In this document: one piece after another, positions 3,359 through 61,155 of the stretch
Position numbering within the stretch: position 1 is the first letter of the stretch
Layout of the letters: each line of letters opens with the position of its first letter
The notes under the pieces: model-generated
Told to the model about the DNA's origin: nothing
Database searches by the model: none
The model's input: the letters and a program-made list of their open reading frames with translations, nothing else
Position numbers and translations under genes: made by a program
NCBI RefSeq assembly: GCF_013122565.1
Contig: NZ_CP053258.1
DNA: 64,000 bases
Origin: Escherichia coli
GTDB taxonomy: Bacteria > Pseudomonadota > Gammaproteobacteria > Enterobacterales > Enterobacteriaceae
Direction: 5' to 3' (one strand)

Positions 3359-3453
3359 TGGCGGAAGATCACAGGAGTCGAACCTGCCCGGGACCGCTGG
3401 CGGCCCCAACTGGATTTGAAGTCCAGCCGCCTCACCGGAGACGACGATCTTCC
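3359..3453 (-). tRNA. selC: tRNA-Sec (selenocysteine, anticodon UCA)
   Basis: Reverse complement is GGAAGATCGTCGTCTCCGGTGAGGCGGCTGGACTTCAAATCCAGTTGGGGCCGCCAGCGGTCCCGGGCAGGTTCGACTCCTGTGATCTTCCGCCA, 95 nt, with the long variable arm and encoded CCA typical of E. coli selC. Confidence 0.95.
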
Positions 3454-22865: not shown

Positions 22866-22991
22866 AGACGTTCCTGTTTATAAAAGGAGAGGTGGAAGGA
22901 TTATAGCCATCGATGCCTTGTCAGGATAGGAATAACCGCCGGAAGTCCGTATAATGCGCAGCCACATTTGTTTCAAGCCGGAGATTTCAAT

Positions 22992-23708
22992 ATGCGTCCA
23001 GCAGGCCGTAGCAATAATCAGGTGCGTCCCGTTACCCTGACTCGTAACTATACAAAACATGCAGAAGGCTCGGTGCTGGTCGAATTTGGCGATACCAAAG
23101 TATTGTGTACCGCCTCTATTGAAGAAGGCGTGCCGCGCTTCCTGAAAGGTCAGGGCCAGGGCTGGATCACCGCAGAATACGGCATGCTGCCACGTTCTAC
23201 CCACACTCGTAACGCGCGTGAAGCGGCGAAAGGTAAGCAGGGTGGACGCACAATGGAAATCCAGCGTCTGATCGCCCGTGCGCTTCGCGCGGCAGTAGAT
23301 TTGAAAGCGCTGGGTGAGTTCACCATTACACTGGACTGCGACGTGCTTCAGGCTGATGGTGGCACGCGTACCGCTTCGATTACGGGTGCCTGCGTGGCGC
23401 TGGCAGATGCGCTACAGAAGTTGGTGGAAAACGGCAAGCTGAAAACCAATCCAATGAAAGGGATGGTAGCCGCGGTTTCTGTCGGGATTGTGAACGGCGA
23501 AGCGGTTTGCGATCTGGAATACGTTGAAGACTCTGCCGCAGAGACCGACATGAACGTAGTGATGACCGAAGACGGGCGCATCATTGAAGTGCAGGGGACG
23601 GCAGAAGGCGAACCGTTCACCCACGAAGAATTACTTACCTTGTTGGCTCTGGCCCGAGGGGGAATCGAATCCATTGTAGCGACGCAGAAGGCGGCGCTGG
23701 CAAACTGA
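22992..23708 (+). CDS. rph: ribonuclease PH (apparently intact, full-length)
   Basis: [14 protein letters not shown]... through ...[16 protein letters not shown]; 238 codons with no frameshift. Confidence 0.9.
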
Positions 23709-23713
23709 TTTTT

Positions 23714-23741
23714 AAGGCGACTGATGAGTCGCCTTTTTTTT
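23714..23741 (+). terminator. pyrE attenuator (intrinsic terminator in the rph-pyrE gap)
   Basis: aaggcgactgatgagtcgcctt hairpin followed by a T run, 6 bp after the rph stop and about 30 bp before the pyrE start. Confidence 0.75.
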
Positions 23742-23773
23742 GTCTGTAGAAAAGTAAGATGAGGAGCGAAGGC

Positions 23774-24415
23774 ATGAAACCATATCAGCGCCAGTTTATT
23801 GAATTTGCGCTTAGCAAGCAGGTGTTAAAGTTTGGCGAGTTTACGCTGAAATCCGGGCGCAAAAGCCCCTATTTCTTCAACGCCGGGCTGTTTAATACCG
23901 GGCGCGACCTGGCACTGTTAGGCCGTTTTTACGCTGAAGCATTGGTGGATTCCGGCATTGAATTCGATCTGCTGTTTGGTCCTGCTTACAAAGGGATCCC
24001 GATTGCCACCACAACCGCCGTGGCGCTGGCGGAGCATCATGACCTGGACCTGCCGTACTGCTTTAACCGCAAAGAGGCAAAAGACCACGGTGAAGGCGGC
24101 AATCTGGTTGGTAGCGCGTTACAAGGGCGCGTAATGCTGGTAGATGATGTGATCACCGCCGGAACGGCGATTCGTGAGTCGATGGAAATTATTCAGGCCA
24201 ATGGCGCGACGCTTGCTGGCGTGTTGATTTCGCTCGATCGTCAGGAACGTGGGCGCGGCGAGATTTCGGCGATTCAGGAAGTTGAGCGTGATTACAACTG
24301 CAAAGTGATTTCTATCATCACCCTGAAAGACCTGATTGCTTATCTGGAAGAGAAGCCGGAAATGGCGGAACATCTGGCGGCGGTTAAGGCCTATCGCGAA
24401 GAGTTTGGCGTTTAA
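23774..24415 (+). CDS. pyrE: orotate phosphoribosyltransferase
   Basis: [13 protein letters not shown]...; 213 aa; PRPP-binding motif [13 protein letters not shown]. Confidence 0.95.
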
Positions 24416-24422
24416 AGAAACT

Positions 24423-24446
24423 CGCCGGATGAAAAGTCATCCGGCG
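24423..24446. terminator. Hairpin between convergent pyrE and slmA
   Basis: cgccggatg-aaaagt-catccggcg inverted repeat. Confidence 0.5.
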
Positions 24447-31326: not shown

Positions 31327-31365
31327 CAGTATTCAGGTAGCTGTTGAGCCTGGGGCGGTAGCGTG
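31327..31365 (+). promoter_or_regulatory. JUMPStart element containing the ops site (RfaH recruitment) in the waaQ leader
   Basis: cagtattcaggtagctgttgagcctggGGCGGTAGCGTG; the 12-nt ops consensus GGCGGTAGCGTG is at 31354-31365. Confidence 0.7.
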
Positions 31366-48242: not shown

Positions 48243-49277
48243 ATGATGAACAGCACCAATAAACTTAGTGTTATTATCCCGTTATATAATGCGGGCGATG
48301 ATTTCCGCACGTGTATGGAATCTTTAATTACGCAAACCTGGACTGCTCTGGAAATCATTATTATTAACGATGGTTCAACGGATAATTCTGTTGAAATAGC
48401 AAAGCATTACGCGGAAAACTATCCGCACGTTCGTTTGTTGCATCAGGCGAATGCTGGCGCATCGGTGGCGCGTAATCGTGGGATCGAGGTGGCGACGGGC
48501 AAATATGTCGCTTTTGTCGATGCTGACGATGAGGTCTATCCCACCATGTACGAAACGCTGATGACCATGGCGTTAGAGGACGACCTCGACGTGGCGCAGT
48601 GCAACGCTGACTGGTGTTTTCGTGAAACGGGAGAAACCTGGCAATCCATCCCCACCGATCGCCTTCGCTCAACCGGCGTCTTAACCGGCCCGGACTGGCT
48701 GCGGATGGGGCTTTCTTCGCGCCGTTGGACACACGTGGTCTGGATGGGGGTTTATCGCCGCGATGTTATTGTTAAAAATAACATTAAATTTATTGCCGGA
48801 TTACATCATCAGGATATTGTCTGGACAACAGAATTCATGTTTAACGCGCTGCGTGCGCGATATACCGAGCAATCATTATATAAATATTATCTGCATAATA
48901 CGTCAGTGAGTCGGTTGCATAGACAAGGGAATAAAAACCTTAATTATCAACGTCACTATATTAAGATTACCCGCCTGCTGGAGAAATTAAATCGAAATTA
49001 TGCCGACAAAATTACGATTTATCCGGAATTTCATCAGCAAATAACTTACGAAGCATTGCGTGTTTGCCATGCGGTGCGCAAAGAGCCGGATATTCTTACC
49101 CGCCAACGGATGATTGCCGAGATATTTACTTCCGGTATGTATAAGCGCCTGATTACCAATGTCCGCAGCGTGAAGGTGGGTTACCAGGCGTTACTGTGGT
49201 TTTTCCGCTTATGGCAATGGCGCGACAAAACGCGGTCGCACCATCGCATTACGCGTAGCGCCTTTAATTTGCGCTAG
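48243..49277 (+). CDS. waaH: GT2-family glycosyltransferase WaaH/YibD
   Basis: 344-aa ORF with N-terminal GT2 signature LSVIIPLYNAGDD...DADD. Confidence 0.8.
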   Translation: MMNSTNKLSVIIPLYNAGDDFRTCMESLITQTWTALEIIIINDGSTDNSVEIAKHYAENYPHVRLLHQANAGASVARNRGIEVATGKYVAFVDADDEVYPTMYETLMTMALEDDLDVAQCNADWCFRETGETWQSIPTDRLRSTGVLTGPDWLRMGLSSRRWTHVVWMGVYRRDVIVKNNIKFIAGLHHQDIVWTTEFMFNALRARYTEQSLYKYYLHNTSVSRLHRQGNKNLNYQRHYIKITRLLEKLNRNYADKITIYPEFHQQITYEALRVCHAVRKEPDILTRQRMIAEIFTSGMYKRLITNVRSVKVGYQALLWFFRLWQWRDKTRSHHRITRSAFNLR

Positions 49278-50223
49278 CGTTAAGTTTTGCCGCTTCGGGC
49301 TGCTTGCCCCAGCCTTGCCACTGATGCTGGAAGTAAACGATCAGCGTGCTCTGGCTGATGCTTTCGCTTAATACTTCAAAGAAGCGATTAGCATAAACAG
49401 GTTCTATCGGTTTCTTCGGTTTGCAGAGCTTCACGCCACGGAACGGATTACGCGGTGTGTCGGGCACAGTGTTTTTCGGCGGTGTAGACGTATCAACCTG
49501 CGGTTCATTCAGCAAGCTGCTGGCTTTCACCAGCGTAATGTCTGGTGGCAGGTTATAAACCATCTGTTGTAGCACGCGTACCGTTGAAGGGTGAGGATGA
49601 CCGATGGCAATGGTCGAACCGTTGCGACGCGCGAGGTCAATCGCGCGATTGAACTGCACACGGATGTCCGCTTCGTTCTGTGAATCGTCGAGGAACACCT
49701 TCCGTTTGATCACCTTCACGCCAGTGCCTTGTGCGGCGCGCATCGCCTGGGTATTACCGATGGTTACGCTGTCGAGGAAGTAAAGATTGTAACGCTCCAG
49801 CGCCTGCATCACTTTCTGCATACCAAACAGGTTAGAGGTCATCTTGCTGCCCATGTGGTTGTTGATCCCCACGGCATAGGGCACGTTATTGACCGCACTA
49901 CGAATAATGCGCTCAATTTCGTCGCTGCTCATCTCCGGGCGTAGCGTATTTTTCTCCAGCGGCTGTTTACTCAGTGGTGCCATCGGTAGATGAATCAACA
50001 CTTCGTGACCGCTGTTATGCGCTTTGGTCGCCATCTCTCTGGCGTGCGGTGAATCGGGTAATACAGCGACGGAGATAGCGGGAGGCATCGCCAGCACCTG
50101 GTTTTCGTTGTGCGGGCGATACCCAAAATCATCAATGACGATGGCAAGTTTGCCAGCAAGTACGGGGGAGGAGAGCGCCAACAGAGCGGCAAATGCAAGA
50201 ACGTTACGACGAAATGGAAACAA
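49264..50223 (-). CDS. yibQ: divergent polysaccharide deacetylase-family protein
   Basis: 319-aa ORF with signal peptide; 3' end overlaps the waaH 3' end by 14 bp (convergent). Confidence 0.8.
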   Translation of the reverse strand: MFPFRRNVLAFAALLALSSPVLAGKLAIVIDDFGYRPHNENQVLAMPPAISVAVLPDSPHAREMATKAHNSGHEVLIHLPMAPLSKQPLEKNTLRPEMSSDEIERIIRSAVNNVPYAVGINNHMGSKMTSNLFGMQKVMQALERYNLYFLDSVTIGNTQAMRAAQGTGVKVIKRKVFLDDSQNEADIRVQFNRAIDLARRNGSTIAIGHPHPSTVRVLQQMVYNLPPDITLVKASSLLNEPQVDTSTPPKNTVPDTPRNPFRGVKLCKPKKPIEPVYANRFFEVLSESISQSTLIVYFQHQWQGWGKQPEAAKLNASAN

Positions 50224-50226
50224 AAC

Positions 50227-51486
50227 TTATCTTCCCAACCACGGCTGTGGATTGACCGCCTGACCCTGGCGGCGAATTTCGAAATAGAGTGAAGGTCTGC
50301 CCTGACCACCACTGCTGCCCACCAGTGCAATTGGCTGGCCCGCGCGAACCTGCGAACCAACGCTCACCAGTGCGCTCTGATTATAGCCGTAAAGACTCAT
50401 GTCGCCTTTACCATGCTCAACCACCACCACCAGACCGTAGCCTTGCAGCCAGTCAGCCAGAATCACCCGACCGTCGGCAATCGCTTTAACTTCAGTACCT
50501 TCAGAGGCACCAATCACCATCCCTTTCCAGCGTAATTCACCCTGTAGCTGTTCGCCATAGCGATGCAGCGTCGGCCCGCGAACCGGCCAGAATGCCTGAC
50601 CACGCGGTGCGCCCAGACCACCGGTACGGGACATCAGCGATTTTTCGCTTTCAGTCGGTTTGTAGGTGGTGCCTTTACGCGTCGCTTCTTTCTGGCGGTC
50701 GCGAACCGCCTGGGCCTCACGTGCTTCTCGTTCTGCACGCGCTTTCGCCGCGGCTTCCGCACGGGCAATGCTGTTACGCAGACGGGATTCGTTGGCGCGC
50801 AGCTCGCTCAACTGTTGCTGACCTTGCTGGATGGAAGACTCCAGCCCTGCCAGCGTCTTTTTACGCTCGTTCAGCGCCTGAGTCAGTTTCGCCTGTTGGG
50901 CGCGCTGTTCGTATAACAGCGTTTGTTGCTCGCTCTGTTTCTCTTCCAGTTCGGCACGCTGCATAGCGACTTCTTCACGCGTTTGCTTCAACTGGGCGAT
51001 GGTTTCTTGTCGCGCCTGGTTGAGATAGCCGAAGTAAGCCTGCAATCGTTGACCGCGCTGGCTTTCTTCGCCGCTGAGAATCAGCTGAATACCGGTATGT
51101 TCACCCTGACGAAACGCGGCATCCAGTTGCGCGGCGAGGCTGCGTTCCTGGGAGGCTTTTTGCTGCTCCAGTTTCGCAATCGACGCATTCATCTCATCAA
51201 TCTGTTTATTCAGTTGATTGAGGGTGTTTTGCGTTTCGCGCAGCTTGCGGGTGGCTTCCGAGATCGCCTCTTCCTGCTTTTTCAGCTGAGCAAGCAGGCT
51301 TGCGCGTTGTTGCTGCTGTTGACGTACCGCGCGCTCTTTTGCGGCGATGTCAGCCTGAATAGATTTGAGTTGGTCACGCTCATCCGCGTGGGCGGAAAAG
51401 GCGCACAACAATACGCCAGCGCTAAGAACGCTGGCGTAGATGATGGGCCTGATTGCAAACCTGCGCGGTTTCACGGCCCGTGTCAT
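50227..51486 (-). CDS. envC: murein hydrolase activator EnvC (coiled-coil plus LytM domain)
   Basis: ATG at 51486 gives 419 aa; long Q/A/E/R-rich coiled-coil region, C-terminal peptidase M23-like domain. Confidence 0.9.
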   Translation of the reverse strand: MTRAVKPRRFAIRPIIYASVLSAGVLLCAFSAHADERDQLKSIQADIAAKERAVRQQQQQRASLLAQLKKQEEAISEATRKLRETQNTLNQLNKQIDEMNASIAKLEQQKASQERSLAAQLDAAFRQGEHTGIQLILSGEESQRGQRLQAYFGYLNQARQETIAQLKQTREEVAMQRAELEEKQSEQQTLLYEQRAQQAKLTQALNERKKTLAGLESSIQQGQQQLSELRANESRLRNSIARAEAAAKARAEREAREAQAVRDRQKEATRKGTTYKPTESEKSLMSRTGGLGAPRGQAFWPVRGPTLHRYGEQLQGELRWKGMVIGASEGTEVKAIADGRVILADWLQGYGLVVVVEHGKGDMSLYGYNQSALVSVGSQVRAGQPIALVGSSGGQGRPSLYFEIRRQGQAVNPQPWLGR

Positions 51487-51519
51487 GGTATTAATCGCCT
51501 TTCCCCTCATGGGGAGGGA

Positions 51520-53064
51520 TTATTCCACGATGAACAGCGGCTTACCAGTCATCTCTTGCGGGATTTCCATACCCATCAGCGACAACATGGTCGGCGCGAT
51601 GTCAGAAAGTTTGCCGCCTTCAACCGCTTTCACGTTCTTATCGCCAACGTAAATCAGCGGAACTGGCAGGTTGGTGTGCGCTGTGTGCGCCTGACCCGTT
51701 GCCGGATCGCGCATCTGCTCAGCGTTACCGTGGTCAGCGGTGATCAGCAGTTGTCCACCTACAGACTCAACCGCTTTCGCAACTTCATCCACGCAGTGAT
51801 CCAGCGCTTCAACGGCTTTAACTGCTGCTTCCATCACCCCGGTGTGACCTACCATGTCACCGTTCGGGTAGTTACAGATGATGGTGTCGTATTTGCCGCT
51901 CTTGATTGCCGCAACCAGTTTTTCGGTCAGCTCTGCGGAGCTCATTTCCGGTTGCAGATCGTAAGTTGCCACTTTCGGTGAGTTGATCAGAATGCGGTCT
52001 TCGCCTTGGAACGACTCTTCTACACCACCGTTAAAGAAGAAAGTGACGTGGGCATATTTTTCGGTTTCGGAAATACGCAGCTGAGTTTTGTCGTTTTTCG
52101 CCATCCACTCGCCGAAGGTGTTAACCAGGGAAGCTGGTGGGTAAGCAACCGCAGTTTTGATGTCTGCGGCGTATTCGGTCAGCATCACGAAATCCACGTT
52201 AACCACTTTCTTACGCGCGAAGCCGTCGAAATCAGCGTTCACGAAAGCACGAGTGATTTCACGCGCACGGTCAGCACGGAAGTTCATGAAAATCAGTACA
52301 TCGCCGTCTTCCATTGCCGCGTCTGGCTGACCTTCTGCACGAATAACGGTCGCTTTCACGAACTCGTCGTTTTCGTCGCGAGCATAAGCTGCCTGCAAAC
52401 CAGCAACGGCGGTATCGGCCTGGAACTCACCCTGCGCCAGAGTCAGCAGGTCATAAGCTTTTTCAACGCGATCCCAACGGTTATCGCGGTCCATGGCGTA
52501 GTAACGGCCAATGATAGACGCTACGCGGCCTTTGCCCAGCGCGGCAAATTTCTCTTCAAATTTTTTCAGCGAGGATTCAGCACTGCGCGGCGGAGTGTCG
52601 CGACCGTCAAGGAATGCGTGCAGGTAGATTTTTTCTGCGCCGCGTTCAGCTGCCAGTTCTACCATCGCCATGATGTGATCTTCGTGGCTGTGTACGCCGC
52701 CTGCGGACAGCAGACCCATAATGTGTACCGCTTTGCCCGCATTTTTCGCTTTATCTACCGCGCCAGTCAGCACCGGATTAGCAAAGAAAGCGCGATCTTT
52801 GATTTCAACGTCCAGACGAGTCAGGTCCTGATACACGATGCGGCCGGCACCCAGGTTAACGTGGCCTACTTCGGAGTTACCCATCTGACGGTCAGGCAGA
52901 CCGACTTCCAGACCGGAAGCGTCGATCAGGGTATGCGGACGATTGGCCCACAGTGCATCCATTACCGGGGTTTTAGCACTAAAAATGGCGTTATCCTGCT
53001 GTTCTTCGCGATAGCCATAGCCATCCAGAATCACCAGTACCATAGGTTTTTTAGAAACCGACAT
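51520..53064 (-). CDS. gpmM: 2,3-bisphosphoglycerate-independent phosphoglycerate mutase
   Basis: ATG at 53064 gives 514 aa starting [18 protein letters not shown]. Confidence 0.9.
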
Positions 53065-53308
53065 TGCGACAACCTCATACTCAAGAGTCAAAATTTGCGT
53101 AATTTTACTACAGCTGAATCGATAAAATAGCCTCTGAAGATCAAAATATACGACCGCTCGCGGCAAGCCGATGCCAGATTTGCGCTTTTTTTTCGTCGCG
53201 CCCCGCAAAATTGCATTCCAGTTAACGCGCTGGCTGTATTTGCCGCACCGCGCAGGTATACTCCTTTCCTGGTTTTTTTAATCACTACGTCGGGAGTTGT
53301 TACCCCCC

Positions 53309-53740
53309 ATGCAAGAAATTATGCAATTTGTTGGCCGTCATCCCATACTGAGTATCGCCTGGATCGCGTTACTGGTGGCGGTTCTTGTGACTACGTTTAA
53401 GAGCCTGACCTCGAAAGTGAAGGTGATTACTCGTGGTGAAGCTACGCGTCTGATCAACAAAGAAGACGCTGTGGTTGTGGATTTACGTCAGCGTGATGAC
53501 TTCCGTAAAGGCCATATCGCAGGTTCTATCAATCTGTTGCCGAGCGAAATCAAAGCCAACAATGTTGGTGAGCTTGAGAAGCACAAAGACAAACCGGTTA
53601 TCGTGGTAGACGGTTCTGGCATGCAGTGCCAGGAGCCTGCAAACGCGCTGACGAAAGCTGGTTTTGCGCAAGTATTCGTGCTGAAAGAGGGCGTTGCTGG
53701 CTGGGCTGGCGAAAACTTGCCTCTGGTGCGCGGCAAATAA
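53309..53740 (+). CDS. yibN: rhodanese-domain protein
   Basis: ATG at 53309 gives 143 aa; N-terminal TM segment followed by a rhodanese-like domain. Confidence 0.85.
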
Positions 53741-53880
53741 TTTACCTGTCGTCTTTCATGATGCAGGCCGTTAGCTGCAATTAGGCCCCCAGCGACTTAT
53801 TGTTATAAGCTTCTGGGGACACTCCATTTTGCTGCCGCCCTGCAACATGAAATTTCAGGGTAAAAAACAGGAGCTAAGTT

Positions 53881-54132
53881 ATGGCCAATGTTGAAATCTA
53901 TACCAAAGAAACCTGCCCGTATTGCCATCGTGCAAAAGCACTGCTGAGCAGCAAGGGCGTGAGTTTTCAGGAGTTGCCGATCGATGGCAACGCCGCTAAG
54001 CGTGAAGAGATGATCAAACGCAGCGGTCGCACCACGGTTCCCCAGATTTTTATTGACGCACAGCACATTGGCGGCTGTGATGACTTGTATGCATTGGATG
54101 CACGTGGTGGACTGGATCCCCTGCTGAAATAA
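53881..54132 (+). CDS. grxC: glutaredoxin 3
   Basis: 83-aa ORF with active site CPYC. Confidence 0.95.
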
Positions 54133-54194
54133 CGTGTGAACGTTGGCATTACATTGCGCAGTATTTAAGGACAACACTTAAGGGTTTTCTACAC

Positions 54195-54662
54195 ATGTCA
54201 GAACAAAACAACACCGAAATGACTTTCCAGATCCAACGTATTTATACCAAGGATATTTCTTTCGAAGCGCCGAACGCGCCGCACGTTTTCCAGAAAGATT
54301 GGCAGCCAGAAGTTAAACTTGATCTGGATACGGCATCTACTCAACTGGCAGATGACGTTTACGAAGTGGTACTGCGTGTTACCGTAACGGCCTCCCTGGG
54401 CGAAGAAACCGCGTTCCTGTGTGAAGTTCAGCAGGGCGGTATTTTCTCCATCGCGGGTATCGAAGGCACCCAGATGGCACATTGCCTGGGCGCATACTGC
54501 CCGAACATTCTGTTCCCGTATGCTCGTGAGTGCATCACCAGCATGGTATCCCGCGGTACATTCCCGCAACTGAACCTTGCGCCGGTTAACTTCGATGCGC
54601 TGTTCATGAACTATTTGCAGCAGCAGGCTGGCGAAGGTACTGAAGAACATCAGGATGCCTGA
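54195..54662 (+). CDS. secB: protein-export chaperone SecB
   Basis: 155-aa ORF starting [29 protein letters not shown]. Confidence 0.95.
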
Positions 54663-55681
54663 TGAACCAACGTAATGCTTCAATGACTGTGATCGGTGCC
54701 GGCTCGTACGGCACCGCTCTTGCCATTACCCTGGCAAGAAATGGCCACGAGGTTGTCCTCTGGGGCCATGACCCTGAACATATCGCAACGCTTGAACGCG
54801 ACCGCTGTAACGCCGCGTTTCTCCCCGATGTGCCTTTTCCCGATACGCTCCATCTTGAAAGCGATCTCGCCACTGCGCTGGCAGCCAGCCGTAATATTCT
54901 CGTCGTCGTACCCAGCCATGTCTTTGGTGAAGTGCTGCGCCAGATTAAACCGCTGATGCGTCCTGATGCGCGTCTGGTGTGGGCGACCAAAGGGCTGGAA
55001 GCGGAAACCGGACGTCTGTTACAGGACGTGGCGCGTGAGGCGTTAGGCGATCAAATCCCGCTGGCGGTTATCTCTGGCCCAACGTTTGCGAAAGAACTGG
55101 CGGCAGGTTTACCGACGGCTATTTCGCTGGCCTCGACCGACCAGACCTTTGCCGATGATCTCCAGCAACTGCTGCACTGCGGCAAAAGTTTCCGCGTTTA
55201 CAGCAATCCGGATTTCATTGGCGTGCAGCTTGGCGGCGCGGTGAAAAACGTCATTGCCATTGGCGCGGGGATGTCCGACGGTATCGGTTTTGGTGCGAAT
55301 GCGCGTACGGCGCTGATCACCCGTGGGCTGGCTGAAATGTCGCGTCTTGGCGCGGCGCTGGGTGCCGATCCTGCCACCTTTATGGGCATGGCGGGGCTGG
55401 GGGATCTGGTGCTTACCTGTACCGACAACCAGTCGCGTAACCGCCGTTTTGGCATGATGCTCGGTCAGGGCATGGATGTACAAAGCGCGCAGGAGAAGAT
55501 TGGTCAGGTGGTGGAAGGCTACCGCAATACGAAAGAAGTCCGCGAACTGGCGCATCGCTTCGGCGTTGAAATGCCAATAACCGAGGAAATTTATCAAGTA
55601 TTATATTGCGGAAAAAACGCGCGCGAGGCAGCATTGACGTTATTAGGTCGTGCACGCAAGGACGAGCGCAGCAGCCACTAA
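54662..55681 (+). CDS. gpsA: NAD(P)H-dependent glycerol-3-phosphate dehydrogenase
   Basis: 339-aa ORF; start overlaps the secB stop by 1 nt. Confidence 0.95.
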
Positions 55682-55760
55682 CCCCAGGGAACCTTTGTTA
55701 CCGCTATGACCCGGCCCGCGCAGAACGGGCCGGTCATTATCTCATCGTGTGGAGTAAGCA

Positions 55761-56582
55761 ATGTCGTGTGAAGAACTGGAAATTGTCTGGAACAATATTA
55801 AAGCCGAAGCCAGAACGCTGGCGGACTGTGAGCCAATGCTGGCCAGTTTTTACCACGCGACGCTACTCAAGCACGAAAACCTTGGCAGTGCACTGAGCTA
55901 CATGCTGGCGAACAAGCTGTCATCGCCAATTATGCCTGCTATTGCTATCCGTGAAGTGGTGGAAGAAGCCTACGCCGCCGACCCGGAAATGATCGCCTCT
56001 GCGGCCTGTGATATTCAGGCGGTGCGTACCCGTGACCCGGCGGTGGATAAATACTCAACCCCGTTGCTATACCTGAAGGGTTTTCATGCCTTGCAGGCGT
56101 ATCGCATCGGTCACTGGTTGTGGAATCAGGGGCGTCGCGCACTGGCAATCTTTCTGCAAAACCAGGTTTCTGTGACGTTCCAGGTTGATATTCACCCGGC
56201 AGCAAAAATTGGTCGCGGTATCATGCTTGACCACGCGACAGGCATCGTCGTTGGTGAAACGGCGGTGATTGAAAACGATGTATCGATTCTGCAATCTGTG
56301 ACGCTTGGCGGTACGGGTAAATCTGGTGGTGACCGTCACCCGAAAATTCGTGAAGGTGTGATGATTGGCGCGGGCGCGAAAATTCTCGGCAATATTGAAG
56401 TTGGGCGCGGCGCGAAGATTGGCGCAGGTTCCGTGGTGCTGCAACCGGTGCCGCCGCATACCACCGCCGCTGGCGTTCCGGCTCGTATTGTCGGTAAACC
56501 AGACAGCGATAAGCCATCAATGGATATGGACCAGCATTTCAACGGTATTAACCATACGTTTGAGTATGGGGATGGGATCTGA
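55761..56582 (+). CDS. cysE: serine O-acetyltransferase
   Basis: 273-aa ORF with hexapeptide-repeat C-terminal region. Confidence 0.95.
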   Translation: MSCEELEIVWNNIKAEARTLADCEPMLASFYHATLLKHENLGSALSYMLANKLSSPIMPAIAIREVVEEAYAADPEMIASAACDIQAVRTRDPAVDKYSTPLLYLKGFHALQAYRIGHWLWNQGRRALAIFLQNQVSVTFQVDIHPAAKIGRGIMLDHATGIVVGETAVIENDVSILQSVTLGGTGKSGGDRHPKIREGVMIGAGAKILGNIEVGRGAKIGAGSVVLQPVPPHTTAAGVPARIVGKPDSDKPSMDMDQHFNGINHTFEYGDGI

Positions 56583-56595
56583 TGTCCTGTGATCG

Positions 56596-56636
56596 TGCCG
56601 GATGTGATGCGGTTCATAACGCATCTTATCCGGCAT
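56596..56636. repeat. REP-like palindromic unit between convergent cysE and trmL
   Basis: Minus strand reads GCCGGATAAGATGCG...CATCACATCCGGC, an imperfect palindrome of REP (PU) type. Confidence 0.5.
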
Positions 56637-56643
56637 GACGTAA

Positions 56644-57117
56644 CTAATCTCTCAACAACGCGCCCGGATACCCCAGCTGCCGCCAGGCTTCATACACCAC
56701 AACCGACACCGCATTGGACAGGTTCATGCTGCGGCTGTCCGGCACCATCGGAATGCGAATTTTTTGTTCAGCGGGCAGGGCATCAAGAATGCTCGCTGGA
56801 AGGCCGCGTGTTTCCGGGCCGAACATCAGATAATCGCCATCCTGATAGCTTACGGCGCTGTGAGCAGGTGTACCTTTCGTGGTGAGGGCAAACAGGCGCT
56901 GGGGATTTTCTGCTTCGAGGAACGCGCGATAGTCATGATGACGCGTAACGGCGGTAAACTCGTGATAGTCCAGCCCCGCACGGCGCAGGCGCTTATCGTC
57001 CCAGGCAAATCCCATCGGTTCGATGATATGCAGACGAAAGCCGGTATTAGCGCAAAGACGGATGATGTTGCCAGTATTTGGCGGAATTTCTGGTTCGTAA
57101 AGTACGATGTTTAGCAT
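56644..57117 (-). CDS. trmL: tRNA (cytidine/uridine-2'-O)-methyltransferase TrmL
   Basis: 157-aa SpoU-family ORF. Confidence 0.9.
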
Positions 57118-57169
57118 ACTGCCCCCTTAGTGCGGGGGCAGGATAGCAGAAAATTGGTGAGCAGTGCGG

Positions 57170-57262
57170 CCTTTTCCCCTCACCCCGGCCCTCCCCCTGT
57201 CTCTTGATCAGGAGATCTGATCAAGAGACAGCTCCCTGAGGGAGAGGGTTAGGGGGAGGGGG
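57170..57262. repeat. Compound GC-rich palindromic element with an IS50 inside-end-like core
   Basis: cccctcaccccggccctcccc-CTGTCTCTTGATCAG-gagatc-TGATCAAGAGACAG-ctccctgagggagagggttagggggaggggg in the 154-bp lldD-trmL gap; the minus strand of the core reads CTGTCTCTTGATCAGATCT. Confidence 0.6.
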
Positions 57263-57271
57263 CGCAAACGA

Positions 57272-58462
57272 CTATGCCGCATTCCCTTTCGCCATCGGAG
57301 CCAGTGCCGCAGGCAACTCTTTACCCAGCCCTTGCACCAGCGAATCTTGCGTAATTTCGCTAATCGATTTCGCGCCAGTCAGCGTCATCGCCACTTTCAT
57401 CTCTTTTTCGATCAGATTTAGCAGGTTAGCTACACCCGCCTGGCCCGCTGTTGCCAGCGCATACAGGAAAGCACGACCCAGCAGTACGGTGTCGGCACCG
57501 AGCGCAATCATACGCACGACATCAAGCCCGTTACGAATTCCGCTATCCGCCAGAATGGCGATATCACCTTTCACCGCATCTGCAATAGCGGGCAACGCAC
57601 GAGCGGAAGAGAGTACACCGTCCAGCTGGCGGCCACCGTGGTTAGAAACCACAATCCCATCAGCACCAAAACGTACTGCATCGCGCGCATCTTCCGGATC
57701 GAGGATCCCTTTGATCACCATCGGGCCATCCCAGAAATCGCGGATCCACTCAAGGTCTTTCCATGAGATGGACGGATCGAAGTTATTCCCCAGCCAGCCG
57801 ATGTAATCTTCCAGTCCGGTCGGTTTGCCGAGATATGCTGAGATATTACCTAAATCATGCGGACGACCGTTTAGGCCCACATCCCACGCCCATTGCGGAT
57901 GTGTCACCGCCTGCAAGTAGCGCCGCATTGCCGCATTTGGGCCGCTCATACCCGAGTGCGCATCACGGTAGCGTGCGCCCGGTGTCGGCATATCCACGGT
58001 GAAAACCAGCGTCGAACAACCCGCTGCTTTTGCTCGCTCCAGCGCGTTACGCATAAAGCCGCGATCGCGCAGCACATAAAGCTGGAACCACATTGGGCGC
58101 TTGATGGCTGGCGCGACTTCTTCAATCGGGCAAACGGAAACCGTCGAGAGAGTAAACGGAATGCCATGCGCATCCGCCGCTTTGGCTGCCTGAACTTCGC
58201 CACGACGCGCATACATGCCACACAAACCCACCGGTGCCAGTGCTACCGGCATCGACAATTTCTCATTAAACAGCGTCGTTTCCAGGCTTAAGTCGGACAT
58301 GTTTTTCAGAATACGCTGGCGCAGCGCCACTTCTGACAAATCTTCCACGTTGCGGCGCAGCGTGTATTCAGAATATGCCCCCCCATCCATATAGTGGAAC
58401 AGGAACGGCGGCAGAATGCGTTGCGCTGCGGCGCGATAATCGCTGGCTGCGGAAATAATCAT
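57272..58462 (-). CDS. lldD: L-lactate dehydrogenase (FMN-dependent)
   Basis: 396-aa ORF, alpha-hydroxyacid oxidase family. Confidence 0.95.
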
Positions 58463-59235
58463 GCGTTTTTCTCCCTCGAATGCTCATTATGCTCACCGGG
58501 CAGGCGGGTAATCCGTGCGTGGCGAGCCTGATCTTCATCGAATCGTTTCATGGTGGTGTGAACAAAACTAAGGTGCGCCATCATTGCTTTACGCGCCCCG
58601 TCGGCATCACCAGCAAAAATGGCGTCAATGACAGCCTGATGTTGTTCGGTCAGTTGTGAAAAAACCGGTGGCACCAGATACATCCGTTGACGGCTATGCT
58701 TCACTGAGGATTGCAGGACATCGAAGAAACCGCGCATGGTTTGCAGCAGCACGATGTTATGTGAGGCTTCGGCAATCGCCAGATGAAAACGAACGTCCGC
58801 TTGTGAGGCGATATCCGGGTCTTCGCTGAGCGTTGCTTCAAAGCAAAGCTGAATCTTTTCTTTGTCGCCAGGTGTGGCGCGCATTGCCGCATGCCACGCG
58901 GTGCTGGCTTCAATGGCGTAGCGAGCTTCCAGAATATCGAAACTGTAATCCGGATCATCGGCCATCAGCGTTTTTAGCGGCTGGACGATGTTTTGCTCCG
59001 ACCATGTGTCATGACGCCAGCGAATAAACGTCCCGCCGCCGCGTCGACTGAGCAGCACGCCTTCGCTCACCAGTTTTGCCAGCGCCTCGCGCAGTGAATT
59101 ACGCGATACGCCGAGTTGCATCGCCAGTTGACGTTCAGCGGGCAACTTCATGCCCGCCTCCAGGTTTTTTTCATCAATCAGCGCCCGCACACGATCGGCA
59201 ACCTCGTCTGACAGGCGTCTGGGTAAAACAATCAT
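58459..59235 (-). CDS. lldR: GntR-family transcriptional regulator LldR
   Basis: ATG at 59235 gives 258 aa; N-terminal winged-HTH plus FCD domain. Confidence 0.9.
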
Positions 59236-60890
59236 TAAGGAATCATCCACGTTAAGACATAGGCCTGAAGCGTGGTGATCACGCCCACCATACAGGTGAA
59301 GATCAGGCTGTGTTTGACAGTAAAGCGGAACAAATCAGACTCTTTGCCCACCAGGCCTACCGCCGCACAGGCGATAGCGATAGATTGTGGGGAGATCATC
59401 TTACCGGTGACGCCACCGGTGGTATTGGCGGCAACCAGCAACAGATCAGAGACGCCAATTTGTTGTGCTGCGGTGGCTTGCAGCGCGGCGAACAGGGCGT
59501 TAGATGAGGTATCCGACCCGGTCAGGAATACACCCAGCCAGCCGAGGAACGGCGAGAAGAAGGTGAATGCATGACCGGTGTGCGCCAGTGCGAGCGCCAG
59601 TGTTGATGACAGTCCGGAATAGTTCGAAATAAAGGCGAACGCCAGCACCATACCGATGGAGTAGATAGGCAGAGCCAGTTCTTTCAGCGTGCTGCCGAAG
59701 GTGCTGATAGCGTCAGATGGTTTCATCTTCAGCCAGACAATCGAGAGCAGGGCAGCAAAAAGAATGGCGGTACCGGTGGCAGAGAACCAGTCGAACTTAA
59801 ACACGGCGGCATACGCTGTCGCCTCGCTGACCACTGGCGGCATACGGGCAACCAGTTTATCGAGGTACGGCACCGGAATATTGATCACCCACTCATACAG
59901 CGCGCCACCCGATGCGAACAGGGCTTTAAACGGCGGGATACTCCACAGTGTTACGGTAGCGGTCAGGAACAGGAACGGTGTCCAGGCACGTAATACCTGA
60001 CCCGCGGTGTAACCGGTGTGGGCCAGCGTCATATCAACCTGTGACGCCCCCAAATCACCAAAACGGAATACGCGCACTGGCTGCCAGCGTTTGAGGAACA
60101 GCGTCAGGCAGAGCAGTGATACCAGCGAAGAGATAATGTCCGGCAGCTCCGGCCCAATGAAGTTAGAGCTAAGGTACTGAGCGATGGCAAACGAGCCGCC
60201 CGCAACCACGACCGCAGGCCACGTCTCTTTGATACCGCGCCAGCCGTCCATAATCGCCATGATCCAGAACAGCACGATAATGGTCATAAACGGTAGCTGC
60301 CGCCCCACCATCTGACCAATCTCAAAGCTGTCGATACCTGTTACCTGTCCGGCAACCAGGATTGGAATGCCCATCGCGCCAAATGCCACTGGCGCGGTGT
60401 TAACAATCAGGCACAGCCCGGCGGCGTACAGTGGTTTAAAGCCCAGACCGACCAGCAATGCGGCGGTAATTGCTACCGGTGCGCCAAAGCCTGCAGCTCC
60501 TTCGAGGAACGCGCCGAAACAGAAACCGACGATCAGCATTTGCAGGCGCTGGTCTGGGGTTATCGAAAGAATAGACGAGCGAATGATGTCAAACTGCCCG
60601 GTTTTCACCGAGATCTTATAGACGAACACCGCTGCAATAATGATCCACGCGATGGGCCACAAACCATAGAAGAAGCCATAAACCACCGAGGCCAGCGCGT
60701 TAGCGACCGGCATTTTATAGAACAGCAAAGCCACGGCAAGGGCGATTGCCACCGTCCATGAGGCGGCAACGTATCCTTTCAGTTTGAGCTTAATCAGCGC
60801 AAAGAAGAAAAACAGGATGGGAAGCGATGCTATCAGGCTGGAAAGCCAGATATTCCCAGCGGGATCGTAGTTTTGTTGCCAGAGATTCAT
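59235..60890 (-). CDS. lldP: L-lactate permease
   Basis: ATG at 60890 gives 551 aa starting [13 protein letters not shown]; polytopic. Confidence 0.9.
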
Positions 60891-60962
60891 TGCAGGTCTC
60901 CTGGAGTCCACGCACATCGTGTAATGAGTCTGTTGCTCATCTCCTTGTCACACGTTGTGTAA

Positions 60963-60979
60963 AAGTGGCACTGCCAATT
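60963..60979. promoter_or_regulatory. Candidate LldR operator (promoter-proximal) upstream of lldP
   Basis: aagTGGCACTGCCAatt GntR/FadR-type palindrome about 75 bp upstream of the lldP start. Confidence 0.5.
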
Positions 60980-61088
60980 ATGTTGTGTAGGGATAATGAC
61001 AATGAATGGTTAACTAAATGTTATGTATTGGCAACATTTATGTGAGTTTTAATTGGGGAACTGTGAACCAGAGGTCAGATAAGCGAAG

Positions 61089-61104
61089 AATTGGTAGGGC
61101 CAAT
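61089..61104. promoter_or_regulatory. Candidate LldR operator (distal) upstream of lldP
   Basis: aatTGGTAGGGCCAat palindrome about 200 bp upstream of the lldP start. Confidence 0.5.
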
Positions 61105-61120
61105 CTTGGGAGATAGGTAA

Positions 61121-61155
61121 TGAAGAAAAGGGCAATTCCCATCAGAGAATTGCCC
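61121..61155 (-). terminator. Rho-independent terminator downstream of the adhesin gene
   Basis: Minus strand: gggcaattc-tctgatggg-aattgccc hairpin followed by TTTTCTTC. Confidence 0.55.

Follow-up and report, generated by a model that had tools for sequence, protein, structure and literature searches.

A hairpin and U tract between rph and pyrE as the intercistronic attenuator of an rph+ Escherichia coli strain

Introduction

In Escherichia coli the size of the UTP pool controls the expression of pyrBI and pyrE through transcription pausing and attenuation (PMC7818426), and the pyrE attenuator was defined in strain K-12 (Bonekamp 1984 and Jensen 1993, as these are cited in PMC2784333 and PMC11148124). 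Does the hairpin that lies between rph and pyrE in the DNA studied here, a 64-kb stretch of an E. coli chromosome that we refer to as the window, act as such an attenuator, or is it an ordinary terminator, an RNA-stabilizing element or the end of a small RNA? A first-pass annotation of the window had described a G+C-containing stem followed by a T run between the rph stop codon and the pyrE start codon, and had proposed that termination there depends on how closely the ribosomes translating rph follow RNA polymerase. Here we report a computational analysis of the element, of the genes on either side of it, and of its conservation within E. coli and across related species.

Results

A stable hairpin followed by a U tract lies 5 nt downstream of the rph stop codon

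The features on which the analysis turns are as follows (window coordinates).

22992–23708, plus strand: rph (RNase PH), an intact frame of 238 codons, the "leader" cistron whose translation would control the attenuator (open reading frame list, NCBIfam and annotation)
23658–23662, plus strand: run of five G residues (G5), the wild-type rph allele; K-12 MG1655 has G4, the rph-1 frameshift, seen as a single alignment gap in K-12
23677–23679, plus strand: TAG, the in-frame stop codon of K-12 rph-1, out of frame and unused in the window (sequence, end of the K-12 coding sequence, alignment)
23706–23708, plus strand: rph stop codon TGA, separated by 5 nt from the start of the hairpin stem
23709–23713, plus strand: TTTTT spacer between stop codon and stem, a candidate UTP-sensitive slow-down site
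23714–23735, plus strand: attenuator hairpin, with 5′ arm 23714–23722, loop GATG 23723–23726 and 3′ arm 23727–23735; 9 bp, 5 of them G-C
23734–23741, plus strand: T8 run (U tract), the predicted transcript release site (sequence, terminator scan and T-run count)
23761–23766, plus strand: pyrE Shine-Dalgarno sequence GAGGAG, 7 nt before the ATG (read from the sequence)
23774–24415, plus strand: pyrE (orotate phosphoribosyltransferase), 213 codons, the regulated gene (TIGR00336; start as in the K-12 annotation)

The plus strand at 23714–23741 reads AAGGCGACT-GATG-AGTCGCCTT-TTTTTT. The two arms are 100% complementary and form the sole inverted repeat in the interval 23560–23760. The first two residues of the T8 run pair with AA at the base of the stem, leaving six T residues past it. 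The 28-mer has a predicted fold energy of −14.3 kcal/mol, compared with −3.3 ± 1.9 kcal/mol for 200 dinucleotide-preserving shuffles of the same 28-mer, none of which was as stable (0/200; z = −5.9), and the same hairpin is present in both the minimum-energy and the centroid structures when 76 nt or 146 nt of context is folded. A scan for consensus terminators called the hairpin on the plus strand alone. We considered and rejected the idea that it is a bidirectional terminator, as the minus strand has AAAAA and does not have a T run after the stem. The hairpin at 23714–23741 is thus beyond what chance would produce. It sits exactly where the first-pass annotation had put it, and the fold on which that description depended survives in the 76-nt context with the T8 run behind it.

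No alternative, antiterminator-like fold was seen in the 146-nt context. This fits a mechanism in which a ribosome blocks the hairpin rather than one in which the RNA itself acts as a switch.

The hairpin is flanked by intact rph and pyrE genes

Both neighbors of the hairpin are securely identified. The product of rph matches the NCBIfam equivalog TIGR01966 (RNasePH) with a score of 380.8 bits (cutoff 141.5), and an rph annotation is found in 5424 E. coli genomes; the product of pyrE matches the equivalog TIGR00336 at 240.6 bits. The pyrE ATG at 23774 is 32 nt past the end of the T run. We note that an in-frame ATG at 23759–23761, five codons upstream of the pyrE start and overlapping the Shine-Dalgarno sequence, is where the open reading frame list begins the gene (MRSEG-MKPY...); the K-12 annotation places the start at 23774 and not at this upstream ATG. 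From rph through pyrE there are only two runs of four or more T residues, the TTTTT spacer at 23709–23713 being one of them, and a T-rich patch is present upstream of the hairpin near 23631–23650. The order of genes around the locus (nlpA-yicL-setC-selC ... dinD-yicC / rph-pyrE / slmA-dut-coaBC ... waa cluster ... lld operon) is standard for E. coli.

Two further sequences near these genes deserve mention. Upstream of rph, TTGTCA...TATAAT (22921–22955) was considered as a candidate rph promoter and rejected, its spacer being too long and the site not being called by the promoter scan. Downstream, a 10-bp G+C-rich hairpin at 24423–24446 lies between the convergent genes pyrE and slmA; the scan called it a terminator on the minus strand only (the slmA side), and the plus strand has no T run there.

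The element is identical to the K-12 attenuator but is preceded by a wild-type rph allele

The first-pass annotation had named the characterized K-12 attenuator as the comparison to make, and pairwise alignment with E. coli K-12 MG1655 (NC_000913.3) bears it out base for base: positions 23706–23790 are 100% identical. The window is accordingly the same as the K-12 rph-pyrE intercistronic attenuator (Poulsen, Bonekamp and Jensen 1984; Jensen 1993) from the rph stop codon through the hairpin, the U tract and the Shine-Dalgarno sequence to the pyrE start, and the gene order yicC / rph-pyrE / slmA is shared as well. Where the two differ is in rph. Besides a few substitutions, the window has G5 where MG1655 and W3110 carry the rph-1 allele with G4, and K-12 rph is annotated as a truncated RNase PH. 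As a result, translation of rph stops 5 nt short of the hairpin in the window and 34 nt short of it in K-12 rph-1. Judged by its sequence, the attenuator of the window is in the wild-type, functional rph+ arrangement.

That this difference matters is indicated by work on K-12. RNAP gets past the pyrE attenuator only when transcription and translation are closely coupled, and pyrE is expressed less in the presence of rph-1 (PMC11148124; PMC2784333); when MG1655 was evolved in the laboratory, mutations that bring the rph stop codon nearer to the attenuator loop were selected repeatedly (PMC2784333; PMC4166923; PMC3203608). Among the strains described by Conrad et al., two with an 82-bp deletion showed no clear up-regulation of pyrE in the expression data (PMC2784333). 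A 10-bp direct repeat, GCAGAAGGCG, is present in the window at 23601–23610 and 23684–23693, with a spacing of 83 nt (82 in K-12). According to studies of laboratory-evolved MG1655, the GCAGAAGGCG repeats border the 82-bp rph-pyrE deletion that arises there repeatedly (PMC2784333; PMC3203608).

The attenuator is nearly invariant within E. coli

Over its whole length the window shares only about 98.0–98.5% identity with the best match among 5426 complete E. coli genomes, which indicates that its Escherichia or Shigella lineage is not closely represented in that collection; between 22 and 26 kb the identity is 97.9% to K-12 and 93.1% to E. albertii. Despite this lower identity of the whole window, the 101-nt interval 23690–23790 that contains the attenuator has a match of 99% identity or more in 5326 of the 5424 complete E. 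coli genomes, and a contiguous match to it is absent from 17 of the 5424. In one genome, that of E. coli GN25 (NZ_CP139196.1; locus L084, 1790–2510), IS200C is inserted directly after the T run of the attenuator (TTTTTTTTG|TGCACAG...) and parts the attenuator from pyrE.

Across species the spacing and the U-rich spacer are conserved, whereas the stem sequence is not

A PyrE-based scan with one genome per species gave 80 loci from Enterobacterales, Vibrionaceae, Shewanella and Zobellella, and rph is directly upstream of pyrE in 77 of these 80. When the window is included, 75 of 78 loci (74 of the 77 other species) have a terminator-like hairpin and T run beginning 1–9 nt (median 5) after the rph stop codon, in spacers between rph and pyrE that range from 44 to 348 nt in length (median 83 nt). 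Under a strict definition of a terminator the count is 70 of 78, against 0.0 expected from shuffled spacers. As a control, we looked for plus-strand terminators within 200 nt after pyrE and found them at only 20 of 78 loci, with gaps of 3–171 nt (median 22.5) from the stop codon.

The stems themselves differ between clades, there being 26 distinct 7-bp core stems among the loci: those of Enterobacterales are GGCGAC/GTCGCC, those of Vibrio ATAGCTCCC/GGGGGCTAT, those of Enterovibrio and Grimontia GCGGCTTC/GAAGCCGC, and those of Shewanella AAGGACCC/GGGTCCTT. RNAalifold predicted no consensus structure from a MAFFT alignment of the loci, in which the Vibrio rows were out of register; for this reason the helix was named by hand and the sequences were re-aligned with a covariance model. 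Of the cells in the named helix, 86% pair in the MAFFT alignment, and compensatory changes occur in 6 of its 9 pairs. In the covariance-model alignment, which is itself fitted to the structure, 89.4% of cells pair, 5 of 9 pairs have compensatory changes, and the structure outscores every slid control. The covariance model built from the MAFFT alignment has exactly one hit in the 64-kb window (23697–23745, 63.8 bits) and likewise a single one per locus, at the rph 3′ end, in 70 further loci. The spacer between stop codon and stem is 83% T across the 75 loci. What is conserved, then, is the tight spacing from stop codon to stem together with a U-rich spacer, and not the sequence of the stem.

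A recognizable terminator after rph is missing from 3 of the 78 loci, those of Budvicia diplopodorum, Vibrio sp. Hep-1b-8 and Zobellella taiwanensis. The B. diplopodorum locus keeps GGCGAC...GTCGCC around an enlarged loop and has no T run, and the Vibrio sp. Hep-1b-8 locus has only a weak A+T-rich hairpin. Four loci, from a Raoultella metagenome-assembled genome, Escherichia sp. ESNIH1 and two Pectobacterium species, have rph-pyrE spacers of 175–348 nt; in all four the extra DNA is located downstream of the attenuator.

A ribosome at the rph stop codon would be positioned to suppress termination

Taken together, these findings make it very probable (roughly 0.93) that the feature is the rph-pyrE intercistronic attenuator, an intrinsic terminator 5 nt past the rph stop codon through which pyrE is transcribed by read-through, the UTP dependence and the requirement for coupling being taken from the literature. 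The architecture put forward in the first-pass annotation thus finds support in the gene context, the identity with K-12, the 5-nt gap between stop codon and stem, and the presence of the arrangement with covarying stems in 74 of 77 other species.

The mechanism we envisage is a race between polymerase and ribosome. When UTP is plentiful, RNAP would outrun the leading ribosome, the hairpin would form behind the polymerase as it stands on the U tract, and the transcript would be released there, with little pyrE mRNA being made. When UTP is scarce, the polymerase would slow at U-rich stretches, for which the T5 spacer, the U tract and the T-rich patch near 23631–23650 are candidates, and the ribosome would catch up to the rph stop codon. 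With only 5 nt between this stop codon and the stem, a ribosome terminating there would mask most of the 5′ arm (23714–23722) with its footprint; the hairpin could then not form, and the polymerase would read on into pyrE.

Measurements on a tR2 reporter speak to the distances involved. When the stop codon was moved from 28 to 5 bp upstream of the terminator, termination fell from ~90% to <10% in a translation-dependent manner; termination was maximal beyond ~27 nt, and a clearance rule of 10–15 nt was described (PMC4824070). These distances map onto the two alleles: at 5 nt, as in the window, a ribosome would be able to suppress termination, and at 34 nt, as in K-12 rph-1, it would not.

Other explanations for the hairpin

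An ordinary, unregulated terminator that ends the rph unit, with pyrE transcribed from a promoter of its own, would also account for the hairpin, which by sequence is a normal intrinsic terminator; moreover, nearness to a stop codon alone is no proof of regulation, another hairpin being found only 7 nt after the stop codon of pyrE. We nevertheless regard this explanation as very unlikely. A consensus scan, of a kind that weak or non-sigma-70 promoters may escape, called no sigma-70-like promoter for pyrE, either in the 32 nt that follow the T run or elsewhere in the spacer. A plain terminator does not explain why the rph-pyrE pair is kept together with a 1–9 nt gap at 75 of 78 loci when terminators after pyrE are rare and variably placed, nor why the genetics of K-12 ties the position of the rph stop codon to pyrE expression.

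Two explanations at the level of RNA seem to us more improbable still. A stable 3′ hairpin guards RNA against exonucleases, and the stem-loop might serve mainly in stability or processing, protecting the rph message after cleavage of the dicistronic mRNA without acting as a switch. Processing of the dicistronic rph-pyrE mRNA is the subject, going by its title, of a paper by Andersen, Poulsen and Jensen 1992 (in the references of PMC10087573). Such a role is compatible with attenuation and not an alternative to it, and, taken as the main function, which we consider extremely unlikely, it leaves the conserved U tract, the 83% T spacer, the tight spacing between stop codon and stem, and the polarity of rph-1 unexplained. 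It is barely credible that the hairpin terminates a small RNA made from the 3′-terminal part of rph. Searching 23400–24000 against Rfam with E-values up to 10 gave only weak, terminator-like matches to small RNA models, among them sub-threshold matches over the hairpin to RyhB (24.5 bits) and STnc240 (23.4 bits); these are far under the gathering scores of 55 bits and span little beyond the terminator itself. At the gathering threshold, no Rfam family for the attenuator element was found in the whole 64-kb window, and no internal promoter was seen from which a small RNA might start.

Discussion

Our analysis indicates that the hairpin between rph and pyrE in the window is the pyrE attenuator. 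The element is already known: it is the textbook rph-pyrE attenuator, and here it is intact.

The closest parallel outside pyrE is the attenuator in the pyrBI leader, which follows the same logic in that a ribosome catches up during UTP-sensitive pausing and blocks a terminator hairpin (PMC7818426; PMC4824070). Whereas pyrBI has a short, dedicated leader peptide, a terminator inside the leader open reading frame and an added layer of control by reiterative transcription (PMC7818426), in the window the leader is a full-length enzyme gene, the 238-codon rph, and the terminator is just past its stop codon. The PyrR-dependent pyr attenuators of Bacillus and other Firmicutes likewise control genes for pyrimidine biosynthesis through transcription termination. 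They rely, however, on binding of the protein PyrR to an anti-antiterminator, and no antiterminator fold was seen in the 146-nt context of the hairpin; the Rfam covariance model of the PyrR binding site had no match in the window at the gathering threshold and none in 23400–24000 at E-values up to 10. In the engineered tR2 system (Li et al. 2016, PMC4824070), too, a ribosome terminating at a stop codon 5 bp ahead of the intrinsic terminator suppresses termination, an effect lost beyond ~27 nt; that system, a synthetic reporter, uses a phage terminator and does not sense nucleotide pools.

The comparison across species raises the possibility of a broader interpretation, to which we give somewhat less than even odds. 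The rph stop codon, U-rich spacer, terminator and pyrE may constitute an ancient module common to Enterobacterales, Vibrionaceae and Shewanella that has been kept by wholesale replacement of the stem, with the U-rich spacer of 1–9 nt as the actual UTP-sensing pause site that sets the race between ribosome and polymerase. If so, both the breadth of the module and the role of the spacer would exceed what the papers available to us confirmed as described.

Some observations concern other parts of the window. The tRNA-Sec gene selC (3363–3453, minus strand; Rfam 83.8 bits) is a well-known site of island integration; the closest relative has only an rhuM fragment beside selC and the window is collinear with that relative, which makes the site appear unoccupied. 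A JUMPstart element (Rfam RF01707, 55.2 bits; 31327–31365, plus strand) lies ahead of the waa (LPS core) operon. The region 24400–49000 is covered to at least 80% in only 1532 of 5426 E. coli genomes, which fits a waa cluster particular to a single LPS core type; the matches carry annotated waaB, waaL and waaG genes. For 49000–64000, identity to relatives reaches only 96%, with 94% coverage, and some segments of this region recur several times per genome; at about 61300–64000 is the start of a large gene for a YadA-like (trimeric autotransporter) adhesin, adjoining lldP.

With regard to the locus itself, 23714–23741 can be confidently annotated as the pyrE attenuator, and, as the strain is rph+, it should regulate pyrE normally. 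To what was known, the survey of species adds the small observation that the spacing and the U-rich spacer are conserved and the stem sequence is not. The attenuator is a classic illustration of how a gene can be controlled without a repressor protein, through the physical link between transcription and translation, and it accounts for why the standard laboratory strains MG1655 and W3110 are limited for pyrimidines.
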